Of a stretch of 64,000 nucleotides of DNA, positions 32,870 to 51,322 are shown piece by piece (position 1 is the stretch's first letter; every line of letters starts with the position of its first letter). The stretch lies in the NCBI RefSeq assembly GCF_003334305.1, contig NZ_QOWS01000003.1. One strand, 5' to 3'. The notes under the pieces were generated by a model. The model saw only the letters and a list, made by a program, of their open reading frames with translations. It was not told the origin of the DNA and searched no databases. The position numbers and the translations under genes were made by a program. Source of the stretch: Escherichia coli (GTDB taxonomy: Bacteria; Pseudomonadota; Gammaproteobacteria; Enterobacterales; Enterobacteriaceae).

Positions 32870-32998
32870 GAGATATCCTCCAGTTTCCTGCCTGGAGTAT
32901 AGGCAACGGCTGTGCACTCTTCACCGCTAAATTCAGCAGATTGCGAGACGCCTTCCAAAGAGATTTAAGTGCCGGGCGACAGGCACCCGGCAAAGGGA

Positions 32999-34213: not shown

Positions 34214-34298
34214 GCCGAAGTGGCGAAATCGGTAGACGCAGTTGATTCAAAATCAACCGTAGAAATACGTGCCGGTTCGAGTCCGGCCTTCGGCACCA
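34214..34298 (+). tRNA. leuX: tRNA-Leu (anticodon CAA)
   Basis: 85-nt sequence GCCGAAGTGGCGAAATCGGTAGACGCAGTTGATTCAAAATCAACC...GGTTCGAGTCCGGCCTTCGGCACCA with long variable arm and encoded CCA. Confidence 0.92.
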
Positions 34299-34499: not shown

Positions 34500-35764
34500 A
34501 TGGCTCTGAGTGATGTGAAGGTCCGTTCGGCTAAGCCGGAAGCAAAAGCCTATAAACTTACTGACGGTGAAGGCATGGTTTTGTTGGTCACCCTAATGGC
34601 TCCAAATACTGGCGACTTCGTTATCGTTTTGGCGGTAAGGAGAAGATGCTGGCGCTGGGGAAATACCCTGAAGTCTCGCTGGTCGATGCCAGAGGTCGCC
34701 GGGATGAAGCCCGTAAGTTGTTAGCTAACGGCGTCGATCCTAGTGAGAACAAGAAAGCTGTTAAGGTAGAGCATGAGCAAGAGGTGATAACGTTTGAAGT
34801 GGTAGCCAGAGAGTGGCACGCCAGCAATCAGAAGTGGTCTGCATCGCATAGCGCTCGTGTATTGAAAAGCCTCGAAGATAATCTCTTTGCTGCTATCGGT
34901 AAGCGGAACATTGCTGATCTGAAGACTCGGGATCTGCTTGTCCCCATCAAAGCGGTGGAGTCGTCTGGGCGTCTCGAAGTCGCTGCTCGTTTGCAGCAGC
35001 ATACTACCGCGATTATACGCTTTGCTGTACACAGTGGATTAATCGACTACAACCCCGCTCAAGAGATTGCTGGTGCGGTTGCTACGGCGAAAAGACAGCA
35101 TCGTGCTGCTCTGGAACTTAACCGCATTCCTGAATTGCTTCAACGCATCTATCACTATTCTGGCAGGCCGTTAACCCGACTGGCGGTTGAACTCACATTG
35201 TTAGTTTTCATCCGTTCAAGCGAGTTGCGTTTTGCTCGCTGGTCAGAAGTTGATTTTGATACTGCCATGTGGACGATTCCGGGAGAACGTGAGCCACTGG
35301 AGGGAGTTAAGCATTCTCAGCGTGGTTCGAAGATGCGGACTCCACATCTTGTACCCTTATCTCGACAAGCTCTCACCATTCTGGAAAAAATCAAAAGCAT
35401 GAGTGGAAACCGTGAGCTGATCTTCGTTGGTGATCACGATCCGCGTAAGCCAATGAGTGAGAATACGCTTAACAAGGCCTTGCGAGTGATGGGCTATGAC
35501 ACGAAAACGGAAGTGTGTGGACATGGTTTCAGGACGATGGCGTGTAGTTCTTTGATTGAATCGGGATTGTGGTCGAGGGATGCAGTAGAGCGGCAGATGA
35601 GTCATCAGGAACGTAGCTCAGTACGGGCGGCTTATATCCATAAGGCGGAACATCTTGGGGAGCGAATGTTGATGCTGCAGTGGTGGGCTGATTATCTGGA
35701 TGCGAATAGAATGGCGGCTATCACTCCATTTGACTATGCAAAGATTAATAGTTCTTTTCGATAA
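34500..35764 (+). pseudogene. P4-type tyrosine integrase, frameshifted near the N-terminus
   Basis: N-terminal MALSDVKVRSAKPEAKAYKLTDGEGMVLLVT is in frame 3 and the rest (from ...YRFGGKEKMLALGKYPEVSLVDAR) is in frame 2; join is at a CCC run near 34591-34593; C-terminal catalytic region (HGFR...R...Y) is intact. Confidence 0.75.
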
Positions 35765-35965: not shown

Positions 35966-37435
35966 TCAAATAACTCCAAGCTTTGCATACAATTCTTTTT
36001 TCTCTTTCATGCTGTTATCCAATGGTGCTACTCGCAATGCCGCTTTCAAATAAGCCGCAGCACCAGAGTAATCACGCATTTGCTCGCAAACTAAAATGAG
36101 TTGGCTTAACACATGGAACTTCATTGGAGTTGTTTGGTTTACTTTCTCCAATAGTACTCTTGCTTCAGAATATTTCGCTTCAAGGCCAAGGATAGATGAT
36201 TCTAAATACATGGTGGCCGCGTTTTCTGCTTCAGCTTGCTTTCGTTGCAACAGCCAGAAATTTGCTTGACTGATATTGCGTAACTGTAGGTTTGCCTTAA
36301 CTATCAACTCGAACAAAGCTGCTGGTTGAGTCAATTTACCCTCAAGTAAGATCGCTTTATTATCTTCTACAACTTTTTCAAAGTCGAATAAGCGATTGGC
36401 GCGATACAAGGCAATAAGTTGCTGATGTAAAGCTTGTAGATCTTTACTGCGGCTATACTCCTGCGACGCTAATTGAGCAGCTTTTTGGTAAGATTGATCG
36501 GACATTGCTTCAAGTACCGCACTTGACCAGTCCTGAGCAGGTTTAGTTTGAAAAACGGGAGCAATAGCACCAACTTTTAATTGCTTAGTGGCAGCAGAAT
36601 CAAATGCATGAATTAAGTCGGAAATAGTGGAAAAGCGATCCTCCGCTCGTTTTTGTAAACAAGTAAGAACCACTTGTTCCAGGTCCGTATGAATAGAGCT
36701 ATTAATCTCTGTCGGAAGCTTGAAAGGTGCGTGGCGCTGAACTTGTGCTGGCGTATCATGGGGCAGCTTTCCTGTCAGCAGCTGGTATAGCAAAACACCT
36801 AAGCTATAGATGTCGCCCAATAGTAGCTCTTCCAGGCTGCCTCTACGGCTATCGACGTTGGAGAACTCTGGGGCCGAATACAGCACAGTCCCGCCATTTT
36901 CACGGGTACGAACGTAAATTTCTTCTGGTAAAGCTGAGCTGCCAAAGTCCGTCAACTTCACCAGGTCCCGCTCTCCAACCAAAATGTTATGTGGCTTAAT
37001 ATCTCCATGAGATATTGGTACTGGTAATTCGGCCAAATAATGCACAGCACAGAGCACTTGACGATATATTCTGAACAACCGTTCATAGGTCTGGCCAAAA
37101 TTACGCTGCCTGTCATCGAGCTTTTGCGCCAGGGTTTGGCTGGGAAAATACTCCATTTCAATATAGAACCATTCATTATCTATACGGCCCATATCAAAAA
37201 TTTGCACAATATTTTCGTGCGGCTCGACGTTTAAAAGCTCTTTACCTTCGGCAAGCTGACGGTCTTCCCGAGTAATATCCTTAGGGATTTTTACTGCGAC
37301 AATTTTTCCATCTTTCAGGCGTTCCGCCCGCCATACCCAGCCATGGCTGCCATCACCAAGGCATTCAAGTAACAGGTATTTGTCACCAAGGCGTTTATTC
37401 GTCCCTGGCAAAAAATGTGCTGATTTTATATTCAC
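35966..37435 (-). CDS. Eukaryotic-like (Hanks-type) Ser/Thr protein kinase with helical/TPR-like C-terminal half
   Basis: Gly-rich loop LGDGSHGWVW, VAVK lysine, catalytic loop HGDIKPHNIL, DFG and SAPE motifs; GTG start overlaps the upstream stop (GTGA). Confidence 0.75.
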   Translation of the reverse strand: MNIKSAHFLPGTNKRLGDKYLLLECLGDGSHGWVWRAERLKDGKIVAVKIPKDITREDRQLAEGKELLNVEPHENIVQIFDMGRIDNEWFYIEMEYFPSQTLAQKLDDRQRNFGQTYERLFRIYRQVLCAVHYLAELPVPISHGDIKPHNILVGERDLVKLTDFGSSALPEEIYVRTRENGGTVLYSAPEFSNVDSRRGSLEELLLGDIYSLGVLLYQLLTGKLPHDTPAQVQRHAPFKLPTEINSSIHTDLEQVVLTCLQKRAEDRFSTISDLIHAFDSAATKQLKVGAIAPVFQTKPAQDWSSAVLEAMSDQSYQKAAQLASQEYSRSKDLQALHQQLIALYRANRLFDFEKVVEDNKAILLEGKLTQPAALFELIVKANLQLRNISQANFWLLQRKQAEAENAATMYLESSILGLEAKYSEARVLLEKVNQTTPMKFHVLSQLILVCEQMRDYSGAAAYLKAALRVAPLDNSMKEKKELYAKLGVI

Positions 37436-37974
37436 ATCAACACCTCATAGTGAATTCTGTCCAAAACAATCATGTTCAGGTTTTTGATAAATAAAAAGCG
37501 ACTAAATACCACCTCAACATCAGGAGCGGCGATTACTTGGGTACCCGTGGACGAAGTAAAACCCATACGGCATATGTCTTTCAGTTTTTGAGTATCAGGT
37601 ACACCTACTAAGCCTTGGCTCCAGGCACTGAGGACCAGGGTTTTGGGGCAATGATTCCAGCGCTGTGCTGCTTCCAGTAAGTTTTTTAATTTTTCTTCCA
37701 GCTTTTGCTGCCCCTTCGCTGAACCATCAAAGCGTTCAAATTCGATTAAACACACAGGCGATGCAGAAGATTTATGAAACCAGCCCGAGTCAGAGCGAAT
37801 ATCAGCACCAAATGTCCCTGGAGCCGGGCATTCCACTACCGCCATAAATGACTGTTCATGCCCGAATGTATTCCAAACGCTACAGCCCAGGCTGTGGACC
37901 AATACATCCTGGTCCAATAGCTTACCGCTTGCTAAAAGTGGAAATGTCTCATTTACCCAGGCAACTTCAGGCAT
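37432..37974 (-). CDS. Hypothetical protein (about 180 aa; the listed ORF extends to 38031)
   Basis: ORF translationally coupled between the HerA-like gene and the kinase gene; no motif recognised. Confidence 0.5.
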   Translation of the reverse strand: MPEVAWVNETFPLLASGKLLDQDVLVHSLGCSVWNTFGHEQSFMAVVECPAPGTFGADIRSDSGWFHKSSASPVCLIEFERFDGSAKGQQKLEEKLKNLLEAAQRWNHCPKTLVLSAWSQGLVGVPDTQKLKDICRMGFTSSTGTQVIAAPDVEVVFSRFLFIKNLNMIVLDRIHYEVLM

Positions 37975-37981
37975 AGGCACC

Positions 37982-39667
37982 TTAGCCACTGAAAGAGCCC
38001 CAAACACGCAGTACCTCTGGTGATTCACCACCGTGAATTAATGCCTTACTACCAACTTTAACAAGCAGTGGTGCAGGGATTGAACGACCACACACCAAAG
38101 CTTCACCGGTTGATAAACTCGGGAGTTCCTCCAGATCAGCTTTGCTCACCATATCTGATGCTTTAGCTATAAATCGTTGATCGTCAGGGTTCTTTAAGCG
38201 CATCGTAATTAGCGTATTGCACTGAGAGGTCACATCTGAATCTAATTTCGATGGACGCTGGCTCACAATGCCAAATCCAACGCCAAATTTACGACCTTCA
38301 CCAGCGATCTTTTTAATAATGCGGTGACTGACTGCGTTGCCGCCGGCCGGGGCAAAATTATGACCCTCTTCGTAAATGATAAAGCATGGGCGCAGCGGGT
38401 CCGTTTTGCTCGAGGCTGCTTTTAATATTTCACTAGATAACAGTGCACAAATGACTTGCTTAGCGGTATCACTCAAACCTTGTAAGTCAACAACGACTAA
38501 ACGCCCCTGTTGATTGCTCGGGCGACCCACCATTTTGTAAATATCAGTTGGCTCAGCCATTGTTGCGCTGTAAAAACTTTTAGCTTCATTAAGCACACGT
38601 GAAAGCTTCATCGAGGCGACGGCGGCACTACGGCCTGATAACGCCTTCGCCTCAGCTTCAGAAAGGTCGTCCCACTCTTTTAACTCTTCAATACCATCAC
38701 CTAATAAGAAGCGTAGGCGGTTAATATCTCGTGGCTCAGTCTTATCTGCAGAGCGCCAATAACGAATTGCAACATCGAGTACTCGTTGCTGCGGTTCCGT
38801 TAAGCCAGGTAATATTTCAGCAATATCGTCCATTTCAAAATGGTCAAACTGAAGCGCTAATGGCGTATTCTTACTGGCGTATTTATGTTTAAAAGATTCA
38901 TGCTGCGGCGAGTAAACCTGAATACCTGCACCGGCGGCTTGCAGCTTTTCAAAGGTCTGTTTTATCAGTGGCAGTGCTTCTTGATCACGCTTATCGTCAG
39001 TGGCTTCTAAGAAGCTTGAGAATTGCAGATTACCGCCAGCGAGGGCTTTACCGTATTCACCATGTGGGTCAAATACTACTACCGTACCGTTATTAACCGC
39101 AACTAAACGCTCAATAATGCGGCCAACTGTATAAGACTTACCTGAACCCGTCATTGCCAGAACAGCCAAATGCTCAGTGACCAACTTGTTCACGTCAATA
39201 AAAACAGGAACTGTATTCTCACCTTTGTCGTAGCCTACTAAGTTACCTAAGTGCAAACTGGAGTGTTCATTAAATTCGTAAAAATCACTCAAAAACTGAA
39301 AATCGACGGTTTCAACAGCGGTACCCGGGTTAAGCGGGCGACGTGGAATTTTGATTTGACGAGTAACAGGATCGCGGTAACCAACCAGCTCGACCTGAGC
39401 AAACATATTCTCACCAGTTACATTCGCACCGGGCAAAAGCTCAAGCTCGGTTACACCATCGCCAAAGCCGGCGTTATAGAGCATATTAGTACGGCTTATC
39501 TTGGTCACTCGCCCCAGTACGGCGACTTGCCCCTCATCTTTGCGTTCCTGGTGCATAATGCGTACAAACTCACCACGGCGTACTGAAAACGAGTCTTGTA
39601 CAACCATAGTTAACTGACTGGCATCACCAGTGTTACCGACTAATTTACCTAAAACTTTATAAGCCAT
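37982..39667 (-). CDS. HerA/FtsK-like ATPase
   Basis: Walker A AMTGSGKS, DPHGEY motif, Walker B FIIYEEGHNF, arginine-finger region SQRPSKLD. Confidence 0.75.
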   Translation of the reverse strand: MAYKVLGKLVGNTGDASQLTMVVQDSFSVRRGEFVRIMHQERKDEGQVAVLGRVTKISRTNMLYNAGFGDGVTELELLPGANVTGENMFAQVELVGYRDPVTRQIKIPRRPLNPGTAVETVDFQFLSDFYEFNEHSSLHLGNLVGYDKGENTVPVFIDVNKLVTEHLAVLAMTGSGKSYTVGRIIERLVAVNNGTVVVFDPHGEYGKALAGGNLQFSSFLEATDDKRDQEALPLIKQTFEKLQAAGAGIQVYSPQHESFKHKYASKNTPLALQFDHFEMDDIAEILPGLTEPQQRVLDVAIRYWRSADKTEPRDINRLRFLLGDGIEELKEWDDLSEAEAKALSGRSAAVASMKLSRVLNEAKSFYSATMAEPTDIYKMVGRPSNQQGRLVVVDLQGLSDTAKQVICALLSSEILKAASSKTDPLRPCFIIYEEGHNFAPAGGNAVSHRIIKKIAGEGRKFGVGFGIVSQRPSKLDSDVTSQCNTLITMRLKNPDDQRFIAKASDMVSKADLEELPSLSTGEALVCGRSIPAPLLVKVGSKALIHGGESPEVLRVWGSFSG

Positions 39668-40814
39668 TATTCAATCCCTCATCGAGGCCTGCCAACCACC
39701 CTGCCTCAATATCATTATTCTTTAGTGCCTGGTGTAAACCCTGGCGATAAAACGTAGCAAATTTAGGTAAAATACCAAGCTGTTGATAACCAAGTAATTG
39801 TGGCAACGGCATTGCATTACCTTTGTTTTGCATATCCAGCACCATCAGGCGAGAGGCAACTAAATCGAGATCAGCACTTTTCCATTCTGGTTCGTCACCC
39901 GCTAATTGCACCATTTTTATCTGTCCACCTCGGGCACTACGGAAGTGAAAACCAATTAGACCTTGCTTAGCTTCAATATTGGGTTCAATGCGCTTTTCTT
40001 GTTCAGACAAACGAAATGCGATGGTGCGCGAATAGTTGCCTAAAATGCCATTGATAAATCGCAAATCTCCCACGCCAACCAAACTTTCATCCAGTCCTTC
40101 CAGATTTTGCATCAACTCTTTAGAAAACCCATCAGATGCTAAAATTTGTTTGCGTCCTTGTTCGGTACGTAAATCTTGTTTGGCGATACTTACAATGGCA
40201 CTAAAGCGCTCAGCCAAAATGCTCGCAAGTACTACACCATTTTGATTCCAGGGAAAAATTCTGGAGCGATGGTTTTGCCAAAAAGTTTCTATCACTTGTC
40301 TGGTTTTTTCGTACTCTTGTTTATGACGGACATTTCTCTCCAGCGGAGCCATATCCCGTGCTAAAAACAACGGCGTATCCAGCAAAATTAAATCGCCAGG
40401 CTCATAACCTAAAAGTTTTTTCTCAACTAACTGATAAGCCTGACGAATTTCAATTAAATCAAGCCGTTTACGCTGAGCTTCAAAATCAATATCATCCAGT
40501 TCTGATACCGAGTCGCTACCCACCGTGCTGACTTTATTGTCATCTATTAACAAATCTGTGCGCACTGCTGCACTGGCATAAATAAAACCACCCAATACCT
40601 TGTCTAAGCACGATTTAGTCGCAATACCGGCTACGCGTAAATTAACAATTGTGGGCTTGGGGACCGCTTTCACTAAGCCAGCATCACGGAATAGCGGCGC
40701 CACTTGCTCAATATCACGGACCTGTTTAAGCAAGCGTCCTGCACTTCCCGGTAAGCGAAGCTGGCTATCGATGGCGAGCGATTGCGCTAAATTCATCGTT
40801 TTGTTCTCATTCAT
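39657..40814 (-). CDS. Hypothetical protein (about 385 aa), possible partner of the HerA-like ATPase
   Basis: Coupled ORF (11-nt overlap with the HerA-like start); start set at MNENK; no diagnostic motif recognised. Confidence 0.5.
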   Translation of the reverse strand: MNENKTMNLAQSLAIDSQLRLPGSAGRLLKQVRDIEQVAPLFRDAGLVKAVPKPTIVNLRVAGIATKSCLDKVLGGFIYASAAVRTDLLIDDNKVSTVGSDSVSELDDIDFEAQRKRLDLIEIRQAYQLVEKKLLGYEPGDLILLDTPLFLARDMAPLERNVRHKQEYEKTRQVIETFWQNHRSRIFPWNQNGVVLASILAERFSAIVSIAKQDLRTEQGRKQILASDGFSKELMQNLEGLDESLVGVGDLRFINGILGNYSRTIAFRLSEQEKRIEPNIEAKQGLIGFHFRSARGGQIKMVQLAGDEPEWKSADLDLVASRLMVLDMQNKGNAMPLPQLLGYQQLGILPKFATFYRQGLHQALKNNDIEAGWLAGLDEGLNNGL

Positions 40815-40816
40815 GC

Positions 40817-41692
40817 TTATAGCGTTCCTGTGTGTAGCTGCTCGCCAAGTAATGGGGCATAAGCCCAATATTGCGAGGCTTGTAGGCATGTTTTACCGGT
40901 AGCTGTTATGCCCGCGTCGTCGATAAAATCGTGCTGCCGCAACATCTCACCCCGCTTGACAATATCAAGGCTATTAACATCAAACATCAGCTTAACCGCA
41001 TTATGCTCAGACAACGCTTGTAAGTTCATGCCACCGCCAGCGTAGAGTAATAGCAATACAACTAGATCGTGCTTATCTGGCGTGTAGTCAGTTGATGGCG
41101 CTTTAGGTTCGATTATTCGTTCAGCAATGCCTGCATGGTCCACAAACCAATTCAACCAGCTCACCAGGAGCTCACTATGATCGAGTAAAGTCAGCGACCA
41201 CAAAGGTAACGTGGTAAAGGCTAATAGCCCACTGTTGCTGTGTTTTCGTATGTAGCGGGTATGCACTACATCACCGGCCTGGTGCTGGTAGCGATCTGCG
41301 CTGCCAGTAAAGCCAGCAATAGCCTGGTCTGTTTCACTGGCTAGCAAAGCGGTTAGCCCCGGTTCCTGCCCCCTCAAGCTCGCTGGTACTAACTGCCAAT
41401 CCAGTGGATAGGGCAATTGCGCTAATAAGGTAAATTGTTCTGCTTTCAGGTTTATTACCAAAGCGGCACAACCTGCCTGCATAGCCCAGTGATACAGGTG
41501 CTGCATAGTATTAGCGTCAGTCAACTCTTCTGCTTGCACTATTAACAAACCGCTGGCTGGCGGCGAGCTAATCCAATCCTTCATTAAGGGGGTAGCCCCC
41601 GCAACAGTTTGCAAAAAACGGCCTTTACGATTACTGGCCAGTGCCGCAGATAAATAACGACTCATCGCGTCACCTCTACAAACCAGTGGCAA
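40817..41692 (-). CDS. Hypothetical protein (about 290 aa)
   Basis: Coupled ORF overlapping the stop of the 1428-aa gene; no motif recognised. Confidence 0.5.
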   Translation of the reverse strand: MPLVCRGDAMSRYLSAALASNRKGRFLQTVAGATPLMKDWISSPPASGLLIVQAEELTDANTMQHLYHWAMQAGCAALVINLKAEQFTLLAQLPYPLDWQLVPASLRGQEPGLTALLASETDQAIAGFTGSADRYQHQAGDVVHTRYIRKHSNSGLLAFTTLPLWSLTLLDHSELLVSWLNWFVDHAGIAERIIEPKAPSTDYTPDKHDLVVLLLLYAGGGMNLQALSEHNAVKLMFDVNSLDIVKRGEMLRQHDFIDDAGITATGKTCLQASQYWAYAPLLGEQLHTGTL

Positions 41693-44600
41693 AGGTAAGG
41701 CGCATTTTTACAATGCCTTTGTCTACAAGTCCTTTCTGTTGCTCAGGTGTTAACACGGGTTCCTGATTTTGGCTCAAAGCCTTATAAATCGGTTGCCAAT
41801 CCGCCAGTGTTAAGCCTGTATCATTTAATATTTGCTCACCTTGACTCTGCCATTTGGCCTGGGTGCTTTCACACACCTGTTGAAGTTCTCTGACACCCAA
41901 ATTGCTCACATCCTCCAGAGTCAACGCTGCTGGTTCCGCTTGCTTTTGAGAAGCCAATAGCGGTTTTAATAACGGCAGCCAGCTGTTTACCTGTGCGATG
42001 GAGTTGCGTCTTACTTGGTTTAGACGCTCTTCAATTTTAAGTAGCTGGCCTTGAATCGGTGTAAGTTGACCGCGTGCCGGTTTTAAAAGCTCTTCTGGTA
42101 AATCCCGTAACGATGAAAACTGCCCATTGCGCAAACTGTTTTGCATACTTTGACGCTTGCTCTCTGCATCACTGGGGAGATCGGCAATAGCATCTTCAAT
42201 GAGCTGTAATTTCATTACCAGTTTTGGTAGCTCTGCAATGTCATCGGCGAACTGATACTCAGCCGTGGCGCTACTAAGCCATTCTTGCAGTTGTTGTGCA
42301 CGTAGTTTTTGCTCTGTGAGGTTATTAACCAGCTTACTAAATCGTTCTTTGCAGTTGCGGTAGCTGGACAAAATATGCCCCTGAATCTCCGCTATCGGCA
42401 ACTGTTGATCATTGTGCAGGTTTAAACCCACTTCTTGCGCTAAGGCTGAAAGCTTGTCATGCGCTCTACCTAAATCGAGTTTACGCAGGTAATGCAGTAA
42501 GGTATCGCTATCTGCTTGCTGCTCTTTTCGGCCAGTGGCACTGCTGGTATCGTCTTTTAACGCTCCATCTAAAATATGACCTATGGTGCGCAGCGTGTTG
42601 GTGTACAGACGTTTCGGAAAATTCGTCAGCGGGGCACACTCTGTTTCAACATCTATGATTAAATCAACGAGTCGGTTGTTGATACGCTCAGCGCTGCACT
42701 CAACAAACTCGGCAAATAAACAGGCCTGTTCAATCCGTTGATAAAGCGAGGTCGTTTTGTCTTCTAAGCTGAGAATATGGGCATCTTTTAGCATAGGCCT
42801 GGAACTATTAAGCGGTTTAACCTTTGCTACCAGCTCCAGCACTTCAGCGCGTTTGTGGATAAGCCCTGCCAATACTTTCGTGTCGTTGGCCTCGACCATA
42901 TCAGCCAATTGTTCTTCTTGCTGTTTGAGCACGTTAAATAGCGATTGTGCTTTTTCCAGCTGCTCTTTAGCTTCCACGGTGACGAAACCCAGCTTATTTT
43001 TACCCAGTGGCGCGAACATTTCATTAATGCGTGCATAACCATACACGCGGCTCATGACTTCCACATTGGCTGCATAGCTGCCCATATCGTTACCACGGAA
43101 CCAGTTTTGCGCTTCTCTAATGGCATTTTCTAAGCGGGAGCGCGGGTAGTGCTCCCAAATTGCCTGTTTTTCTGTTGGATTGGTTAAAGTGAGTAAGTTC
43201 AGCTCTCCACACCACCACATCCAGTCATTAAACACGCCTTTGGCGGTAACACTCGTTTCAGCCACATAGGCGAAATAAAACTGTTGCTTAAAGCCTTCGA
43301 ATTGCCACTTGTGCTTTTTATTAGGGTGAGCAATACGGGCTAAAAATAATGGGATCTGCGCCTGGCTTCGCTGCACATTATTAAGTTCAGTAAATAGCCC
43401 GGCATGTTCATCGGCAGTGTAACCTTTGGCAATATAGCTGCCCGGCACCTTAAGTTTATCCAACAAGCTGCTCAGCTCATTCACTGGCACGCCGTGTTGC
43501 TGCTGTAAATCGAGAATGCCATTTAACTCAGGGTGAGCAATGGCCAGCTGATACCAGCCTTTAAACAACAGGTCTCGGTCATTCGGTGATAATTTACCAT
43601 CTACCTTTAACGGCCAGGCAATTAAACCGCGCTGCTGCAAACGCTGGCGCCACTTGTGAATGGCATCCGTGGCAAAGGTTGTCAGGGCATGCAGCTTGTT
43701 TTTGAATTTCGCGGTAAAGCTGTCGGCAGTTAAATTCACGCCGTGCAACTGACATGCTGCCAAACTTAAGCCAATACGCTCTAACTGGTCTGCTTCGCTT
43801 GGGTTGACATAATGCAGCAGTATCGCATCACGCAACTCATTTCTTTCATCCAGTCGGCTGTATTGCTCCATGAGATGTGCAGAAGCAGTTAACGCTAATA
43901 CTGGCGTGCGACCATTTTGGTGGCTGTGGTTTGCCGCAAAGGTGTGAAGATTGTTCAGCTCAATTAGGTTGCTGACCCAGGCAAACAAGGCTTTACCTTC
44001 TGGGTGAAGCTTAAATCCATCCAGGGTAAGTAAACCACCCTGGCGGCCACGGGGCTCGGTTAAAATGGCCAAAGGTGCATCGTCGCTGCCCGCTTTATTA
44101 CTCAGCAAGTTTTCATCATAGGTCCAGTTGTTATCAAGTAATCTCACAAAGCCCGTTACACGGGCTAATGCCTTGATGAGCGGCTTCTGGCTACTTTGTT
44201 TGCTAAGTTCACTCATTGCCTGTTCATGAGCGTCGCCCATGGCGGGATCTTTAAAAATCAGTGAGTTTTGCTGGGCACTGCGATAGCGCAAATCCAGGCG
44301 CAGTAACATCGCCACACTGGGGCCAATATGCGTTGCTTCGCTGGCGTCCAGTTCGGTAGTTTCACCCACTAGCTTGTGCCATAAGGCATCGGCAGCGAAT
44401 TCAATCGCTGGGTGGTCATACAGCAAGCTGAGTAAGTATTTAAACTCACCTTTTGACAGAGGTAGTAATACCGCGCCTTTATCGCCGCTTGCGGCTTGTT
44501 CTTTAATTGAAAAAGTACGCAGGTTATCCAGCAAAGTATCTAAGTTCAGCGCTTGATCTACTGCAGGGTAGTACCATTCATCTTTATCGCGGCGGAATTT

Positions 44601-45962
44601 GGCTTGCTCCAGGGCTTGTCGGCACTGTAGGCGGTCAATGCTCAGTTTGCGGTAATGAGCGGCTATGGGTTCCAGATCTTCGTTTTTCAGCGCCAGCAAT
44701 TCTGTGGCATAGCCCATTTCAGCTAAGCGCACGGGTAATTGGCCGTAGAGCAAACTACGACATTCGGTCAATAGTGCCTGGTCGCGAGTTTGAATGCCTT
44801 CTATCGCGCCTTTATCCAGCACATGCCTGGCTACGCGGCCAGAGCCTGCCAGCACAGCTTCAAATAAATCGCCCACATCCTTGATACTGCGGCCTGCTTG
44901 TTGGTATTGGCTCAGCACTGCATCCACATTAGCCATGACCACGTTAAACCAACCGAAGTTGGCACCACTCATGGCGTATGCAGCTTCCACTAAACCAGCA
45001 GGGTAATTAAAACCCAGCTTGCCGTCTTTTAAGAGGCTTGCCACATAGTCTGATACATCGGCAAAGGCATTATGCTCAAGTTCCACTAACTCAAAGCGGC
45101 GTGCGACCGATTGAATTTCGCGCAATTGCTGGCCAAGCAGTGGTGAACACAGCGCTACATAGCGCAACCATGGAAGTTTACGGCGAGGGTCTTCCTCTTT
45201 AATTGCTTTACCAATCAGGCGAATGGCCTGGCCATCGAGGCGTTTATTTTGTTCATCTTCCAGGCCAAAGGTGGCGGCTTCTGCAACGGTTTCCAGCTCA
45301 TCCAGCACCACCAACATATACTGCACGCCAAAGCTCTTTAATACTTTATAGGCGGCTTGCACCAAACTGACTACCAGCGTTTGGTCAGTATAGAGGTCTT
45401 CTTCGCTGTGGTTGGCGTTCAGCTGTAAGGCATCTGCTAACAGTTCAGATTTAAAGCCAAATGGCATTAAGCGTTCATAGGCTTGTTTGGCAATTTCACT
45501 TTGAATCGATCCATCAAAGGTTTGGGTGGCCAGTGGTAATAGCGCCTGATATAAACCAAAAGCAAACCAGTTATCCGAGTTTTGATAATCTGATGCCACT
45601 TGCGAGTAGCGAATGTAGAGCGCCAGGTATTTGTCTTGCGTGTCGCGATTAAACAGCTGCTTATCGTGCAGTTGGCCTTGTTCGTCGCGGACAAACCAGC
45701 CCCTTGAACAGTCGTTAATTTGTGCAACCAATTCATGGCCTAAACGTGATTTACCCCGACCCCATTCGGCTTCGACGGCAAACACATGGGCAAAGCGATC
45801 ATCGTCGTGATCCACCGTATGCAAAAAGGTTTGAAAGCGTTTAAAAAAGCGGCTCTGGCCCACTAACGGGTCGCGAGGTGGATAATCTGATACGCCCGTC
45901 GCCGCCCAGCGATGTTGTTTTGCCAGGCTATCAACCATCTGTTCGTTTAATTCAAAACTCAT
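41676..45962 (-). CDS. Large (1428 aa) P-loop NTPase-domain protein
   Basis: Walker A-like VEAEWGRGKS and Walker B-like YMLVVLDELE in the N-terminal 250 aa; the long remainder has no recognisable motifs; ATGA overlap with the upstream gene. Confidence 0.6.
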   Translation of the reverse strand: MSFELNEQMVDSLAKQHRWAATGVSDYPPRDPLVGQSRFFKRFQTFLHTVDHDDDRFAHVFAVEAEWGRGKSRLGHELVAQINDCSRGWFVRDEQGQLHDKQLFNRDTQDKYLALYIRYSQVASDYQNSDNWFAFGLYQALLPLATQTFDGSIQSEIAKQAYERLMPFGFKSELLADALQLNANHSEEDLYTDQTLVVSLVQAAYKVLKSFGVQYMLVVLDELETVAEAATFGLEDEQNKRLDGQAIRLIGKAIKEEDPRRKLPWLRYVALCSPLLGQQLREIQSVARRFELVELEHNAFADVSDYVASLLKDGKLGFNYPAGLVEAAYAMSGANFGWFNVVMANVDAVLSQYQQAGRSIKDVGDLFEAVLAGSGRVARHVLDKGAIEGIQTRDQALLTECRSLLYGQLPVRLAEMGYATELLALKNEDLEPIAAHYRKLSIDRLQCRQALEQAKFRRDKDEWYYPAVDQALNLDTLLDNLRTFSIKEQAASGDKGAVLLPLSKGEFKYLLSLLYDHPAIEFAADALWHKLVGETTELDASEATHIGPSVAMLLRLDLRYRSAQQNSLIFKDPAMGDAHEQAMSELSKQSSQKPLIKALARVTGFVRLLDNNWTYDENLLSNKAGSDDAPLAILTEPRGRQGGLLTLDGFKLHPEGKALFAWVSNLIELNNLHTFAANHSHQNGRTPVLALTASAHLMEQYSRLDERNELRDAILLHYVNPSEADQLERIGLSLAACQLHGVNLTADSFTAKFKNKLHALTTFATDAIHKWRQRLQQRGLIAWPLKVDGKLSPNDRDLLFKGWYQLAIAHPELNGILDLQQQHGVPVNELSSLLDKLKVPGSYIAKGYTADEHAGLFTELNNVQRSQAQIPLFLARIAHPNKKHKWQFEGFKQQFYFAYVAETSVTAKGVFNDWMWWCGELNLLTLTNPTEKQAIWEHYPRSRLENAIREAQNWFRGNDMGSYAANVEVMSRVYGYARINEMFAPLGKNKLGFVTVEAKEQLEKAQSLFNVLKQQEEQLADMVEANDTKVLAGLIHKRAEVLELVAKVKPLNSSRPMLKDAHILSLEDKTTSLYQRIEQACLFAEFVECSAERINNRLVDLIIDVETECAPLTNFPKRLYTNTLRTIGHILDGALKDDTSSATGRKEQQADSDTLLHYLRKLDLGRAHDKLSALAQEVGLNLHNDQQLPIAEIQGHILSSYRNCKERFSKLVNNLTEQKLRAQQLQEWLSSATAEYQFADDIAELPKLVMKLQLIEDAIADLPSDAESKRQSMQNSLRNGQFSSLRDLPEELLKPARGQLTPIQGQLLKIEERLNQVRRNSIAQVNSWLPLLKPLLASQKQAEPAALTLEDVSNLGVRELQQVCESTQAKWQSQGEQILNDTGLTLADWQPIYKALSQNQEPVLTPEQQKGLVDKGIVKMRLTFATGL

Positions 45963-47260
45963 AACGACGATCCTTGAAGGTTTATTCTATTGGCGGCGCG
46001 TTTTTTATTGGCATAGCAGTTTTGCGCCAGTTGCTTAATGGTCCGTTGTAACGTTTGGCTTTTGTAGCCAAATAGTGGTGCTAACGGCAGGCTATAACAG
46101 GCATCGCTGAAGCTTGTATGAATTCGATATTGGCCGGCCTCTCCACGACCCGCCTCGGTAAATTGCCAGATTTTTTTTGCCAACAATTCGGCAATGAATG
46201 AGCTCAGGACGCGGTTTAGGCGGTTGATGCTTTCCGTGTTCGCATCGAGTGCCGGGTAGAGGGGTATATTGAGCTCACCGAGCAGAAGCACAAGAAACTC
46301 GGCCAAACTACCCAGACTCACCTCATCACCTTCAATGCCCTGTACCGCCACATTTATTTGACCGGGGGCAAAGGCATTTTGCCCGGCAGGTAAGGTGAGC
46401 AACAAACCGCCACGTTGCTCGGCAGCCCAGGCATCTTGCACAAAGATAATTAGACTGAGTAAAAATAACCAGGGCTGTTGGGCGAATAGCTCGGTAAGCG
46501 GCATGTTGTCATGACCCGAGCGGGACACCAATAACCAATCGGCATTGGGTTTAAGGTTATGTTCATCAAGCAAGGTATTAGGGAGTGCTAACAACCGCCC
46601 ACTACACCAGTTATTTGTCAGTTGTTTTGCGGTGACATCCACCGCTTGTATAGGTGCCGGTGGTTCATTTTGTTCGCTCACGGTAAACAAGGTATAGCTG
46701 GTGCGCAAAATACGACATAGCGCGGGAATGGCAGCATTGTCGTTTAGGCTATGACCGAGCAAATCGCGTTCGGTTTGTGCCAGAGGGCCGGCAATGATTT
46801 GCGGCGTGGTGGCAGTGCTTTCCAGCTGGGCTAAGACCCATTCACTGGCATTGCCCAGTTGCTGAATGAGTTTAACCAATACCATTGTGTCACTCATCGT
46901 GCCTGCTTCCTGGCAGCGAGCGGCGGCTAAATTGATCCAATGTTGGCGAACATCTGGGTTTAAGCCCAACAACGCTAATTGCCATTCACCTGACTGGCTT
47001 AAATCGTTAAAGGCATCAAGCAATGGTGCAGTGAGGCTAAAGGCGCTAACGATATCCGTTTCAGCGTCGTTCTTTTTCGGCTGTATTATTGGTTGTAGCA
47101 GTGACCTAAGGGCAGGCACAGCCGCCAATAACAATGCTGCTTTGTTGGCGTTCAAACCACCTTGTTGCCAAAGCTGCAGGCAGAGGTTAAGTGCCGCTTC
47201 GCTATTTACGGGGTCGTTATATTGCCTGGTTGTACTGCTGTCCGTGCCCCTTGTCTCCAT
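45959..47260 (-). CDS. Hypothetical protein (433 aa)
   Basis: Coupled ORF between the HsdS-like gene and the 1428-aa gene; no motif recognised. Confidence 0.5.
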   Translation of the reverse strand: METRGTDSSTTRQYNDPVNSEAALNLCLQLWQQGGLNANKAALLLAAVPALRSLLQPIIQPKKNDAETDIVSAFSLTAPLLDAFNDLSQSGEWQLALLGLNPDVRQHWINLAAARCQEAGTMSDTMVLVKLIQQLGNASEWVLAQLESTATTPQIIAGPLAQTERDLLGHSLNDNAAIPALCRILRTSYTLFTVSEQNEPPAPIQAVDVTAKQLTNNWCSGRLLALPNTLLDEHNLKPNADWLLVSRSGHDNMPLTELFAQQPWLFLLSLIIFVQDAWAAEQRGGLLLTLPAGQNAFAPGQINVAVQGIEGDEVSLGSLAEFLVLLLGELNIPLYPALDANTESINRLNRVLSSFIAELLAKKIWQFTEAGRGEAGQYRIHTSFSDACYSLPLAPLFGYKSQTLQRTIKQLAQNCYANKKRAANRINLQGSSL

Positions 47261-47262
47261 CT

Positions 47263-48741
47263 TTACTCTTCAGCCTCCGCTTGCGCCGCCTCTTCCAGCA
47301 AACTGTATAACTCATCCACATCGCTAAATAGCGGTGTGGCACCTTCAATGGCATAACCCTCAGCGCTCAGTTTGCTTAAAATCGCTTGATCAAAGCTGCT
47401 GTCGCCATCTTCCAGGGCTTGTTGGGCCTGGATTAGTTGTTGCTCAGTCAGTTGGCCTTCGATTAATGACTCAACTAGAGTTTTGGCAGATGCTGTTAAC
47501 TTTTTTGCATATGCTGCCGTAGTAACGGCTAGTCTCAGCTTACTTCCTATTTCTCTATTCTTCGCTATGTCAATCGGAATCAGAATATTTAACAGGTTTT
47601 CTGAAGTCACTTTTGGTACAACGCTGCCAGTAGTCACACCTTTCCAACACGGAAAGTGTTTATCCAGGAACCTACAAATAGACTCAATATCATATTCATC
47701 TTTTACCTTTAAAACCCAAACATGGTTGTTTGCCCAAAACTTTCCATCAGCTACATTTGCACAGCCAATAGAGCCATCTTGCGCAATAATCAGATATTTA
47801 CCGTTGAAATTGAATTCGGTATGAGTATCTATTGGACCTGATGCGCCATAGTAAAAATATGGTCCGGGTACTCTGTCTTCCGATTTAATAGGGTCGCCAC
47901 ATTTGCATTTACTAATGAAATTAGATAGTTTTGATGAATTCCTAAAGGTCATTTGACTATCGGCCGCACGTGCAAACTCAGGAGCTAAAGACACTGCTGA
48001 TAATACCTGTTGTTTCATTCTTCTAGGTTTCAATGTTAATGAATCAACAAGGTTGAAGTGAAATAAATCTTTAATTTTTCTATCAGCCATTCCTTCAAGT
48101 CGTTTCGCCCAAGCGCGTAACTGCTCGGCTTGGCGAACTTTATCCCCGATGTATTTTTGGGCTAGAGGTAAAACTTTAGGAACCGCTAGCGAGCGGACAC
48201 TTGGGAAGTCAATTGCAGGGCGAGTTGCGCCATATGCTTCCTTCCAGATCGCTACTTGTCCGGTTTTGCTATTCAAATATGCCACCAAGAAATAGGCGTC
48301 AACTTTTTTGGGATCGGGCTTGAATCTGACTGAGTGCTGACTAATGTTGGCCGGTAGATGTTTAGCTGACACAACAGCCGATTTACCAAATTTTGCACCA
48401 GTAATCGTAAGTAAAACGTCGCCATCCACTAATCGGCTGCGCTTTAATTTTTCATCATCTTCATCGTTAATAAAAACAGCTTCTTCAGCTTGCAAGAACA
48501 TTTCTTCAACTTCAGAAGTGCGATAAAACTTAACACGGCCTTTTTCTAAATAATTTGCTCCTAAAGGTGTTGCGCCACTAGCCACCCCGCGCTTTGAATC
48601 AATTACCGCTTCTAGGGGCAAAGCACCTAGGTTGTCTTTTATCTTATTAATTTGTCTTTCAAATCGCGGTTGATAGTGCCAAGGATCAATCCGCCTTTCA
48701 GACAATTGTTCGGGTGTTCTTTTAAAAATAGTTGCCATCAC
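47263..48741 (-). CDS. hsdS: Type I restriction-modification specificity subunit (HsdS-like, two target-recognition domains)
   Basis: Two TRD-like halves (RIDPWHYQP...GDVLLTITGAKFGKSAVV; VPGPYFYYGASGPIDT...) separated by a conserved helical spacer (LAVPKVLPLAQKYIGDKVRQAEQL) with a C-terminal helical region; 4-nt overlap with the MTase gene. Confidence 0.7.
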   Translation of the reverse strand: MMATIFKRTPEQLSERRIDPWHYQPRFERQINKIKDNLGALPLEAVIDSKRGVASGATPLGANYLEKGRVKFYRTSEVEEMFLQAEEAVFINDEDDEKLKRSRLVDGDVLLTITGAKFGKSAVVSAKHLPANISQHSVRFKPDPKKVDAYFLVAYLNSKTGQVAIWKEAYGATRPAIDFPSVRSLAVPKVLPLAQKYIGDKVRQAEQLRAWAKRLEGMADRKIKDLFHFNLVDSLTLKPRRMKQQVLSAVSLAPEFARAADSQMTFRNSSKLSNFISKCKCGDPIKSEDRVPGPYFYYGASGPIDTHTEFNFNGKYLIIAQDGSIGCANVADGKFWANNHVWVLKVKDEYDIESICRFLDKHFPCWKGVTTGSVVPKVTSENLLNILIPIDIAKNREIGSKLRLAVTTAAYAKKLTASAKTLVESLIEGQLTEQQLIQAQQALEDGDSSFDQAILSKLSAEGYAIEGATPLFSDVDELYSLLEEAAQAEAEE

Positions 48742-50885
48742 TCACCCCGCTTATAAGCCGATACAATCTTATCCAGATCGTTTGCGACACCGGCGTTATA
48801 GTCTTCGATATTGTTTTTCACCACATAACCCAATGTTTCAGCCACTGCCATAAACACGTCGGTTTGTGGCTCGGGCAAAAATTGCTCTGGCTGGTTGGGG
48901 TTAGCATGGCGTTTTTGTAAATACAAAATCGAGGTTTTGGCCCCCGTACCGGAGAGTTTAAAGCAGTCGCTCGGCAATGAAATTACTGCTTTTACAATAG
49001 CTTTACCGCCAACAAACTCGCCGGTTTTTTCGTCTTTTTTCCCCATAATGTACTCACGGACATAACGGTCGCCGGAGTTACATAAAATACCATCAGGCAG
49101 CACTATTAACAGGCGGCCACCGGGTTTAAGCAGTTGCAGGCAGCGGTCGATAAAAAGTACTGCTGGGTCAATAGTGGCACCTACCGGTTGCCAGTTGCCC
49201 TTGCTATCGGGCTTGCTGCCCAGCGCGAGCCCTGCGGTTGTAGGCTGCAGGCTGTAAAACGGCTTTTTATCAGTCCCGCCCGTTCTGCGCAAATCGGTAC
49301 GGTAGCCCGCCCATTTAGGCTCGCCGTTTTCATCCAGCTCTAAATCACCGATATCCTGCCACTTCATTTTCACGTGGTCATACCAGGCGTTGTAGCTATC
49401 AACGACTTTTTTGGTCGGACGAAAACCACCGAGCACTTGCTCCATATTGGCTTCGTAATTGGCTTTTGAGTTTTGACCATTTTTGCCTTTATCAAATTTA
49501 GGCGTACCGAACGGCGGGTTGGTGCAAATCAGGTCAAAGCTATTCGGCTTCAGAGCGTTAGTAGTGAGTGAGTTGTCGGTATAAAAAATCTGCGCTTTGG
49601 GGGCACCTTGCAATGCCATATTCACGCGGGCCAGCATTACCATGCGTGGTGCAGCATCGGCACCGGTAAATGCACAGTCGCGTAATTTTTGTTTCAATGA
49701 TTCTTTTTTATCGTCGGCCAGCACCAGCTTAAAATCGATCCATTTATCAATCTGGCTTAACGCCACCGAGCCAAAACCAAAGGAGCCACAGGTGGGGTCG
49801 CAGAAACGAAAATCGCCATTGGCTAAGCGCGATCGCATTTCATCGTCATCGTCGATGTCGTGCATAGCAATTTCTAGCATGGCCTGTTTTACTGGGTTTG
49901 GTGTTAAATAAACGCCAAGGCCACCTTTGGATTCAAAGTTAGCGCGTAGGAATACATCAAACACTCTGCCTAGTAAATCTCCTGACACATCAGCCAACGT
50001 GCCGTGTTCTTTCGCGATTTTACCGTCGTTGGTTTTTACCGGACCCAGGTTTTGTATTGCTTCCAGCAAATCCTGATAGTTTTTCGCAACAGACAGTCGC
50101 AGGTGTGTTTCTTTACTAAAGATGGGGTTACGTGAGCCATCATCTGAGATCACAACGTAGTTTTCGTGGCTTTTAAATTCCTCAAAGGCGGCTTTGATTT
50201 GGGCAACGGCTTTATCGCCGTGGCTCTCCACATATTGCCAATCAAAGACATCACGAAAACGCAGGGTATTTCCCTCATCATCTTTAAAGGTAAGGTCTTC
50301 ATCGTGATGCAGGCGGAAAGTTTCTAAAAACAGAAGCTTAGCTACTTCTTCAATAATGTCGTTCTTGTCGTTTACCTTGTCTTTGGTAACGCGATAAACA
50401 TTTTCATGGAAGGCATCAAATCGCTGCATTAAGCGTGTATAAACACGCATCGACCAGCGAAAGGTTGGATCACGCTCCATGCGATCAAAGCTACGTAATT
50501 CTTCCAGACCAGGCAGGGTATCTGCACCGTGGGTACCGTCAGATCCATCGGCACCGAACAAGGCCAAAATACGTTGGTTCAAGCCATCGTCCACAACGGC
50601 ATATACTGGCCAGTCACCTTCGATATCACTTAACAGCTGATAGGCTAAATCATCAAACTTTGCAGTGTCAGCGGCGTATTCCCAATGGCCTTCTGTCAGC
50701 GCAATCAACATGACTGGTGGCGTTAAGTTGCCTTCAACCAGGCCTTGAATGAGACCAGCCTTGGCGAATTCATGCTCGGGTAATTCGACCAATGGCTGAG
50801 TAAACTCGGAGTGCTGTTTGACCAGTTTATTGAACAGTGCTTCTAGCTGCTGTTGCGGGTCTTGTTTTTTTGCTTCTTTTGCCAT
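48738..50885 (-). CDS. hsdM: N6-adenine DNA methyltransferase, type I HsdM-like (715 aa)
   Basis: AdoMet motif I FRFCDPTCGSFGF, motif IV DLICTNPPFG, motif X region GVYLTPNPVKQAMLEI, C-terminal GRLLIVLPDGIL. Confidence 0.75.
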   Translation of the reverse strand: MAKEAKKQDPQQQLEALFNKLVKQHSEFTQPLVELPEHEFAKAGLIQGLVEGNLTPPVMLIALTEGHWEYAADTAKFDDLAYQLLSDIEGDWPVYAVVDDGLNQRILALFGADGSDGTHGADTLPGLEELRSFDRMERDPTFRWSMRVYTRLMQRFDAFHENVYRVTKDKVNDKNDIIEEVAKLLFLETFRLHHDEDLTFKDDEGNTLRFRDVFDWQYVESHGDKAVAQIKAAFEEFKSHENYVVISDDGSRNPIFSKETHLRLSVAKNYQDLLEAIQNLGPVKTNDGKIAKEHGTLADVSGDLLGRVFDVFLRANFESKGGLGVYLTPNPVKQAMLEIAMHDIDDDDEMRSRLANGDFRFCDPTCGSFGFGSVALSQIDKWIDFKLVLADDKKESLKQKLRDCAFTGADAAPRMVMLARVNMALQGAPKAQIFYTDNSLTTNALKPNSFDLICTNPPFGTPKFDKGKNGQNSKANYEANMEQVLGGFRPTKKVVDSYNAWYDHVKMKWQDIGDLELDENGEPKWAGYRTDLRRTGGTDKKPFYSLQPTTAGLALGSKPDSKGNWQPVGATIDPAVLFIDRCLQLLKPGGRLLIVLPDGILCNSGDRYVREYIMGKKDEKTGEFVGGKAIVKAVISLPSDCFKLSGTGAKTSILYLQKRHANPNQPEQFLPEPQTDVFMAVAETLGYVVKNNIEDYNAGVANDLDKIVSAYKRGE

Positions 50886-50935: not shown

Positions 50936-51322
50936 CTAATTTATCAGTACCAGCAAGGGGCCTTTAATCTCTATCTGCGCGTGCTTCTGTGCCAGTTTGC
51001 GTATCTGCTGTTCACTGGTCGTAATACCAGCAGGGAGCTTTTTCAGTACTTGTGCAAGGGGCATGCGCCCACCAGCTTGATGCAACAATGATACCAAATG
51101 TGCCGCGATATCAGGTATAACCTGGTACGTTGCCGTTGTGGGCCCTTTTAGATGATTACTTTGAGGCAATGAGGCAAGCCATAGCGAAACTTGAGACTGG
51201 CTAAAGCCAAGTGTTTGCCAGAGGGTTTGGTTCTCATTAAATACAACGGCGGCGCTTCTGGGAGTTGCTGTTTGCTGAGTTATTAGTTGTTCCAGGCTTT
51301 GTCGCTGGTATTCATGGGTCAT
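50936..51322 (-). CDS. Hypothetical protein (128 aa), third gene of the McrBC-like module
   Basis: ORF whose start overlaps the McrC-like stop by 4 nt; no motif recognised. Confidence 0.45.
   Translation of the reverse strand: MTHEYQRQSLEQLITQQTATPRSAAVVFNENQTLWQTLGFSQSQVSLWLASLPQSNHLKGPTTATYQVIPDIAAHLVSLLHQAGGRMPLAQVLKKLPAGITTSEQQIRKLAQKHAQIEIKGPLLVLIN

Follow-up and report, generated by a model that had tools for sequence, protein, structure and literature searches.

A non-RD Ser/Thr kinase gene closes a ten-gene MADS-like cassette in the leuX island of Escherichia coli

The DNA analysed here, referred to as the window, is a stretch of 64,000 nt from Escherichia coli (contig NZ_QOWS01000003.1, assembly GCF_003334305.1), and the gene under study occupies positions 35966–37435. 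A preliminary description, made from the sequence alone, had taken this open reading frame (ORF) for a eukaryotic-like Ser/Thr kinase with a GTG start, at the end of an operon with genes for a HerA-like ATPase and a DNA methyltransferase (MTase). The ORF and its start codon proved to be real, and the gene lies on the minus strand, which had not been given before. RefSeq labels the same ORF generically as a serine/threonine-protein kinase and names five of its operon partners 'hypothetical protein'. The gene belongs to a cassette of ten, arranged in the order g128, N6-MTase, specificity (S) subunit, g433, g1428 (a P-loop NTPase), g282, a NurA-fold protein, HerA, g180 and kinase (Table 1).

The gene encodes a real and intact Ser/Thr kinase with its catalytic residues under purifying selection. 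The Pfam Pkinase model (PF00069) covers residues 22–270 (model positions 3–254 of 263, E = 1.2e-33), and its hidden Markov model is matched by all 47 members of the kinase family. The subdomains listed in the preliminary description, and some further catalytic residues, can be read in the translation: the glycine-rich loop (G27-D-G29-S-H-G32, GxGxxG), V46-A-V-K49, E63 in helix alpha-C, the catalytic loop (H143-G-D145-I-K-P-H-N150), D163-F-G165, S187-A-P-E190, D208 and R267. In an alignment of the 47 members, with identities down to 58%, G27/G29/G32, K49, E63, D145, N150, D163-F-G, P189-E190, D208 and R267 are invariant. The arginine of the HRD motif is absent, and H143-G144-D145 is invariant across the family; the kinase is therefore placed in the non-RD subclass but stays within the superfamily. 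Kinases of the non-RD kind are as a rule active, and from its sequence this one is apparently active as well. Nowhere is the protein more conserved than in the activation segment (residues 161–180; score 0.99), and the kinase domain as a whole scores 0.84 against 0.61 for the C-terminal half. The closest solved relative in sequence is StkP (1e-21), and a fold search of the model placed PknB, Stk1, PknA and PknE closest.

The helical, TPR-like tail that had been described behind the kinase domain was borne out by structure prediction. Residues 301–489 are modelled by AlphaFold2 as about 12 antiparallel helices of 10–15 residues, with predicted local distance difference test scores (pLDDT) of about 90–97. 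TPR models of Pfam match weakly but recurrently at residues ~421–476, at E ≤ 0.1 in 29 of the 47 members and at E ≤ 0.001 in three, and this recurrence together with the confident helical model makes 'TPR-like' a fair description. An exhaustive search with residues 280–489 against 1.84 billion cluster representatives returned only 45 matches, and those of full length are all proteins of 485–491 aa carrying the domain at the same position. To the depth of that search, the domain is confined to this one family of kinases. The mycobacterial kinase PknG follows the same domain logic, with a Hanks kinase domain, also non-RD, standing before a TPR domain. PknG differs in having rubredoxin-like N-terminal domains and an unrelated biological role, and it is not among the top 50 fold matches of the cassette kinase, all of which are kinase-domain-only structures.

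The kinase gene is translationally coupled to g180 and forms one compact operon with the HerA and MTase genes. The coding sequence of g180 ends with ATG TGA and that of the kinase begins with GTG AAT, so that the two share the 4 nt GTGA, and a GAGG Shine-Dalgarno sequence lies upstream. This overlap, which the preliminary description had picked out, is kept in 32 of 33 orthologous loci (4 nt in 28 and 1 nt in four), and is replaced by a 9-nt gap in the remaining one. The homologous start position is likewise retained; 18 loci use ATG there and 15 use GTG, so that the GTG start is validated. Between the MTase gene and the kinase gene there are eight junctions, all within -11 to +10 nt, one of them being the 11-nt overlap of the NurA-fold and HerA genes. 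In the 3 kb beyond the kinase, similarity was found in just 8 of 595 locus pairs, mostly of the same genus; since the downstream sequence is not conserved between loci, the kinase is the last gene of the cassette, as had been proposed. Scans with terminator and promoter consensus sequences, 3′ of the kinase and 5′ of the MTase and McrB genes, gave nothing above chance. A GC-rich hairpin without a T-tract is situated about 110–140 nt past the kinase stop codon. The operon has a GC content of 46.6%, compared with 50.8% in the core flank.

The linkage of the kinase to this cassette was examined by searching a set of genomes, one for each species, with the protein from the middle of the operon, which gave 33 loci in Gammaproteobacteria, Betaproteobacteria and Desulfobacterota. 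To these were added the loci found earlier, and a locus was counted as informative when its contig reached far enough to show the position of the kinase. In all 36 informative loci, from more than 30 species, the kinase is present, full-length, collinear, on the same strand and last. Complete cassettes were found in a Pseudomonas and in Desulfonema limicola, and divergent homologues of the kinase in Pseudomonas, Paraburkholderia and Methylocaldum stand in the same gene order. The two most divergent kinases, retrieved with the C-terminal domain (26–33% identity in that domain), are also last in the same cassette. The preliminary description would have given way to homologues of a housekeeping kinase carried independently in unrelated contexts; what was found is the same cassette each time. 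No full-length copy of the kinase occurs among 50,697 phage records, and 72,556 plasmids yielded a single, fragmented copy. This plasmid copy (NZ_CP098193.1, 352–1807) is 68% identical and split into several small annotated ORFs where the record begins, so that any remaining cassette genes would be located across the record origin; either the copy has decayed or the record may contain sequence errors.

Cassette proteins of Pantoea, Rosenbergiella, Ewingella and Serratia are 92–99% identical to those of E. coli, and this level of identity in other genera of Enterobacterales points to recent horizontal transfer of the whole cassette. In Desulfonema limicola (positions 14914–21131 of that locus), the sequence directly 3′ of the kinase holds a gene for an AAA_21/AAA_15 ATPase and two ORFs, of 197 aa and of more than 1500 aa, which may be another stacked defence system.

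Within the cassette, conservation is highest in HerA, with 82–87% identity among E. coli, Pseudomonas and Desulfonema. Over the same three genera the MTase and the NurA-fold protein show ~66–67% identity, the kinase 56–61%, g1428 50–56% and g180 46–48%, and at the other extreme g433, g282 and S are fast-evolving (30–41% among distant loci). Five of the partners (g180, g282, g433, g1428 and the NurA-fold protein) have no significant match in Pfam, NCBIfam, PHROGs or profile-versus-PDB searches, and for g180 this extends to PADLOC. One of the five could be placed by its fold. The ten best Foldseek matches in the PDB to the model of the 385-aa protein (pLDDT 73.5, predicted template modelling score 0.75) are all NurA or HerA–NurA complexes (E 1.1e-9 to 5e-7, probability 1.00), followed at lower rank by EndoV, the PIWI domain of Argonaute, the putative nuclease TM1739 (RNase H-like) and TdpAB. 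UniRef calls some of its orthologues 'NurA domain-containing', and many acidic residues are invariant in the family alignment.

In g1428 the Walker A (G68-x-G70-K71-S72) and Walker B (D221-E222) residues are invariant, and the best Pfam signal is a faint one to KAP_NTPase (E = 0.48). The small protein g180 has a strongly conserved acidic motif among its invariant residues, which are D21, D23, H27, C31, E48, R60, D62, E78-F-E80-R81, K91 and K95. The pattern E48...D62...E78-x-E80...K91/K95 resembles the signature of PD-(D/E)xK nucleases; no database match backs this likeness. At the other end of the operon, g128 is 28% identical over 100 aa to its Desulfonema homologue (pairwise E = 5e-15), and is probably the first gene of the cassette.

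The MTase and S genes form an HsdM/HsdS pair, and no HsdR is present with them. S is the most variable gene of the cassette (30–33% identity between distant loci). In Rosenbergiella it has been swapped, being 34% identical to the E. coli S while every other cassette gene is 87–99% identical. In the Ewingella cassette, one of three such loci inspected (L014, L015 and L042), only half of S matches that of E. coli, at 87%. The pattern, read from sequence comparison, points to exchange of target-recognition domains, and S swapping of this kind is typical of restriction-modification-like defence.

Table 1. Features of the leuX island and the kinase cassette (window coordinates)
Feature	Coordinates	Strand	Evidence and remarks
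tRNA-Leu(CAA), leuX; island integration site	34214..34298	plus	
P4-type tyrosine integrase, frameshifted; island border beside kinase	34500..35764	plus	RefSeq
Ser/Thr kinase gene	35966..37435	minus	489 aa, GTG start; terminal gene of cassette, madl11 position
C-terminal TPR-like alpha-solenoid, residues 301–489, ~12 helices	35969..36535	minus	AlphaFold2 and weak TPR matches; private to kinase family
Hanks-type kinase domain, residues 22–270	36626..37372	minus	Non-RD (HGD); catalytic residues all invariant
g180, 180 aa, coupled to kinase	37432..37974	minus	Conserved; no Pfam, PDB, PADLOC or PHROG match; madl10 position
HerA-type hexameric translocase ATPase, 561 aa	37982..39667	minus	PADLOC HerA 1.2e-56, mad8 6.6e-26; NCBIfam HerA models
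NurA-fold protein, 385 aa, presumed nuclease partner of HerA	39657..40814	minus	Foldseek; madl8 position
g282, fast-evolving	40817..41665	minus	~30–35% identity between distant loci
g1428, large P-loop NTPase with long helical region	41676..45962	minus	madl6 ('ATPase') position
g433, fast-evolving	45959..47260	minus	35–41% identity
Type I-like specificity (S) subunit	47263..48741	minus	PADLOC Specificity_I 7.7e-164
HsdM-like N6-adenine DNA methyltransferase, 715 aa, NPPF motif	48738..50885	minus	PADLOC MTase_I 1577 bits, mad2 2.2e-20; RefSeq
g128, small ORF 5′ of MTase	50936..51322	minus	Desulfonema homologue at same position; madl2 position

The cassette lies in a genomic island inserted at leuX, between ahr/yjgR and nanC/fimB, where its neighbours are a frameshifted P4-type integrase, an McrBC pair and a phosphorothioate-dependent endonuclease. 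This is in keeping with the defence context that had been proposed for the kinase. The stretch from the kinase to g282 (5.7 kb) is present at ≥99% identity in 254 of 5,426 complete E. coli genomes (~4.7%), and these copies are almost always chromosomal. The long ORF of the integrase begins only at 34646 and is without the usual N-terminus, and a search for att direct repeats of at least 16 nt found none convincing. With its integrase frameshifted and no such repeat, the island is probably no longer mobile.

McrB, McrC, g128 and the MTase gene are co-directional (50936–54730, minus strand) with gaps of no more than 50 nt, and the stop codon of McrC overlaps the start of g128 by 4 nt (51319–51322). 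Because of this overlap, the shared direction and the short gaps, type IV McrBC may be co-transcribed with the MADS-like cassette in E. coli. At the far end of the island are the phosphorothioate-dependent restriction endonuclease (54900–55772, minus strand) and a remnant of an HNH endonuclease (~55870–56070), as annotated by RefSeq in an identical region. Three different modification-aware systems are stacked in a single leuX island. Just outside it, the core gene yjgR (31367–32917, minus strand) is annotated as a HerA-like C-terminal domain protein, and its location is probably coincidental.

An arrangement of this kind has been noticed before. Maestri et al. (bioRxiv 10.1101/2023.03.30.534895; Cell Host Microbe 2024) describe 'MADS-like', a putative eleven-gene system of P. 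aeruginosa (madl1–madl11), in the order WYL regulator, undescribed gene, N6-MTase, S, hypothetical, ATPase, two hypotheticals, HerA/DptH-like helicase, hypothetical and kinase. In order and gene count the E. coli cassette matches madl2–madl11, with the kinase at the madl11 position, and the order is shared with the cassettes of Pseudomonas, Desulfonema and more than 30 further species. By its architecture, the cassette matches a MADS-like system, and the E. coli gene is probably an orthologue within a cassette type that had already been seen and given a name. This name had escaped the preliminary description. Both MADS-like and the E. coli cassette adjoin type IV restriction genes in a defence island. 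An orthologous cassette occurs in a P. aeruginosa assembly, with the MTase gene, S (506), 440, 1428, 275 and a NurA-like gene that is 68% identical. Of the four genes to which Maestri et al. give no function, one is shown here to have a NurA fold. A difference concerns madl1 (a WYL helix-turn-helix protein): none is annotated upstream of the E. coli cassette, where McrC and McrB are found instead, although this comes from annotation and not from a dedicated WYL search. According to the annotation of Desulfonema, what comes before the g128 homologue are genes for a transposase and an integrase, and not McrBC or WYL genes.

The canonical methylation-associated defence system (MADS; mad1–8) was validated in P. 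aeruginosa SMC4386 by the same authors (Maestri et al.). MAD6, its kinase, is likewise of the Hanks type and shares its operon with N6-MTase, S-subunit and HerA-like ATPase genes, and mad6 is the best PADLOC match of the cassette kinase (1.2e-45, query residues 8–319 only). HerA matches mad8 (6.6e-26), S matches mad5 (6.3e-16) and the MTase matches mad2 (2.2e-20), all of them below the NCBIfam equivalog cut-offs. MAD6 is without the TPR-like tail, and the similarity ends past the kinase domain. Mad3 (AbiEii/OLD-like), Mad4 (DUF4276) and Mad7 (DptG-like), the last of which is mandatory in the detection model of the MADS authors, are replaced in the cassette by g433, g1428, g282, the NurA-fold protein and g180. 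Identity with canonical MADS was rejected, given scores far below the MAD6, MAD2 and MAD5 cut-offs, the absence of Mad3, Mad4 and Mad7, and a likeness to mad6 confined to the kinase domain.

Other kinases linked to phage defence are more distant. PglW of the Pgl system (BREX type 2) is likewise a Ser/Thr kinase obligatory to a methylation-linked, multi-gene phage-exclusion system; it is a protein of 1400–1600 aa with a NERD nuclease, a tandem pair of pseudo-kinase and kinase, and winged helix-turn-helix domains. The cassette kinase, with 489 aa, a single kinase domain and its TPR-like tail, scores 66.7 bits against a PglW cut-off of 990 (NCBIfam NF033442), and this identity was also rejected. 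PglZ, PglX and BrxC were not found in the cassette by PADLOC or NCBIfam models. Stk2 of Staphylococcus and PD-T4-6 of E. coli, both Hanks-type kinases implicated in anti-phage defence, are reportedly single-gene abortive-infection systems. PD-T4-6 models match the cassette kinase at 1.3e-39 (PADLOC), over the kinase domain only and ranked below mad6. Assignment to this stand-alone type was rejected because in every informative locus the kinase is inside the ten-gene cassette and because the likeness does not go beyond the generic kinase domain. What the kinase shares with MAD6, PglW, PD-T4-6 and Stk2 is no more than this generic domain.

The pairing of a HerA translocase gene with a NurA-fold gene is shared with the HerA–NurA end-resection machines and with TdpAB, the restriction module of TdpABC. 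TdpABC likewise couples DNA modification to a HerA/NurA-type effector. The mark of TdpABC is phosphorothioate, whereas that of the cassette is predicted, from its Type I-like MTase and S proteins, to be N6-methyladenine. The cassette also has five additional proteins, including the kinase, and its NurA-fold protein is without sequence similarity to NurA.

Taken together, our analysis favours the reading that the kinase is a regulatory subunit, and an obligatory one, of a horizontally mobile, methylation-sensing HerA–NurA defence cassette of ten genes, a reading to which we give a probability of about 0.5. The MTase/S pair would methylate a bipartite motif on host DNA as a mark of self, and g1428, together with the fast-evolving g433 and g282, would recognise DNA that is unmarked or invading. 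A translocase–nuclease effector, formed by HerA with the NurA-fold protein, would degrade that DNA and so protect the cell against phage. The kinase would be docked to the complex by its TPR-like domain and held in a fixed ratio to g180 by translational coupling. Its part would be that of an obligatory phospho-switch, by which restriction is either licensed or held back; it would regulate rather than kill, and would not be a free-standing toxin. A regulator is preferred to a suicide toxin because the cassette has a separate effector pair, because linkage and coupling are absolute, and by analogy with the genetics of mad6, although the analogy is to a gene of which this kinase is not an equivalog. 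In canonical MADS, deletion of mad6 abolishes defence and MADS+ cultures grow normally at a multiplicity of infection (MOI) of 10; mad5 could be deleted only where mad2 or mad3 had been removed too, which indicates a delicate balance of self-toxicity (Maestri et al.). Phages that escape MADS are methylated.

Several results weigh against this reading. The kinase scores 116.9 bits against a MAD6 equivalog cut-off of 460 (NCBIfam NF047741), and not being a MAD6 equivalog it makes the analogy to mad6 genetics weak. Counterparts of Mad3, Mad4 and Mad7 were not found among the five unannotated partners (PADLOC at E ≤ 10, NCBIfam). The NurA-fold protein has no sequence match to NurA (Pfam PF09376), nor any in Pfam and PDB profile searches, and its presumed nuclease role draws only on the fold and the adjacency to HerA. 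Canonical NurA has a catalytic Asp/Glu/Asp/His set, with a conserved Asp in the first core strand; no conserved Asp was seen in the corresponding predicted strand here (residues 59–73, consensus V-S-G-I-A-T-x-S), and for this reason the protein is no more than a putative nuclease. The N-lobe of the kinase was poorly modelled by AlphaFold2, owing to a shallow alignment. The cassette type is called only putative by Maestri et al., the restriction mechanism of canonical MADS is still listed as unknown as of 2026, and comparative-genomics work on PglW and DndF fusions reads such kinases as suicide co-effectors.

That last view leads to the first alternative, a phage-triggered toxic kinase of the Stk2/PD-T4-6 type, acting in abortive infection or as a backup suicide co-effector. 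The TPR-like domain would then sense a phage protein, or inhibition of the restriction complex, and phosphorylation of many host proteins would lead to arrest or death. TPR domains are typical protein-binding sensors, and the greater variability of the C-terminal half would suit such a role. In its kinase domain the protein is similar to the PD-T4-6 models and to one ser-thr kinase family of PHROG, and a backup role has been proposed in comparative-genomics papers for the kinases fused to PglW and DndF. The likeness to PD-T4-6 is confined to the generic domain, however, and the kinase is never found alone but always with the full cassette and, by its gene overlap, coupled to g180. The operon already holds a putative nuclease effector, and canonical MADS needs its kinase for direct, non-abortive protection. 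We consider the toxic kinase unlikely, although it is to be taken seriously. The preliminary description had offered a Stk-type abortive-infection effector from context; its operon, kinase, tail and defence setting held up, but this part found no support in a cassette that has its own likely NurA-fold effector and a self-marking MTase/S pair, nor in the mad6 and MOI results from MADS.

It is less likely again that the kinase is a controller of modification, tuning the activity of the MTase/S pair, or the balance between methylation and restriction, as a guard against autoimmunity. Control of this kind has reportedly been proposed for PglW, PglZ and PglX of the Streptomyces Pgl system. It would fit with the constant co-inheritance of the kinase and an HsdM/HsdS pair without HsdR, and with the dependence of mad5 deletion in MADS on the loss of mad2 or mad3. 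On the other hand, nearly the whole operon separates the kinase gene from the MTase gene, the kinase is coupled to g180 and HerA, and no PglZ-like phosphatase was found in the cassette by PADLOC or NCBIfam models.

A catalytically silent scaffold, in which the kinase fold and TPR tail merely hold the complex together, might be suggested by the HGD loop and the large private protein-interaction domain, but is very improbable, as the invariance of K49, E63, D145, N150, D163 and the Gly-rich loop would be unexpected in a pseudokinase. A housekeeping or unrelated signalling kinase that merely lies beside the operon, for which nothing speaks beyond the generic PknB/StkP-type similarity, is rejected on context, since the gene is found in only ~4.7% of E. 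coli genomes, within the leuX island, with absolute cassette linkage across phyla and conserved translational coupling.

A further step beyond the regulatory-subunit reading can be put forward only tentatively. The cassette might be a distinct type of methylation-guided immunity, in which a non-RD kinase with a private TPR domain and a co-translated g180 would be the phospho-switch that arms HerA–NurA against unmethylated DNA. If true, bacteria would have here their own counterpart to the non-RD kinases that signal in eukaryotic innate immunity, and this would be the first phospho-regulated HerA–NurA restriction complex.

In the literature that could be searched, no paper was found that cites the RefSeq accessions of the cassette proteins or that joins NurA, HerA, kinase and MTase as one defence system, and Johnson et al. 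2022 leave the kinase and HerA unmentioned. Relative to that literature, the new elements are the NurA fold of the partner protein, the private TPR-like domain, the invariant non-RD loop, the conserved coupling to g180, the 36/36 linkage across phyla and the ~4.7% prevalence in E. coli. For annotation, the result is that a single label, that of one defence cassette, can be given across hundreds of E. coli genomes to a generic kinase and to five proteins now called 'hypothetical'.

The object itself is not categorically new. Kinases are essential yet unexplained in several methylation-linked defences, including Pgl/BREX type 2 and MADS, and the presence of the cassette in about one in twenty complete E. 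coli genomes provides a compact, genetically tractable version in the best model organism. Its identifiable effector pair, its strictly conserved catalytic residues and coupling, and its private docking domain are features suited to asking what the kinase phosphorylates and whether restriction is gated, and in this way the cassette offers a route to the role of kinases in methylation-guided immunity.

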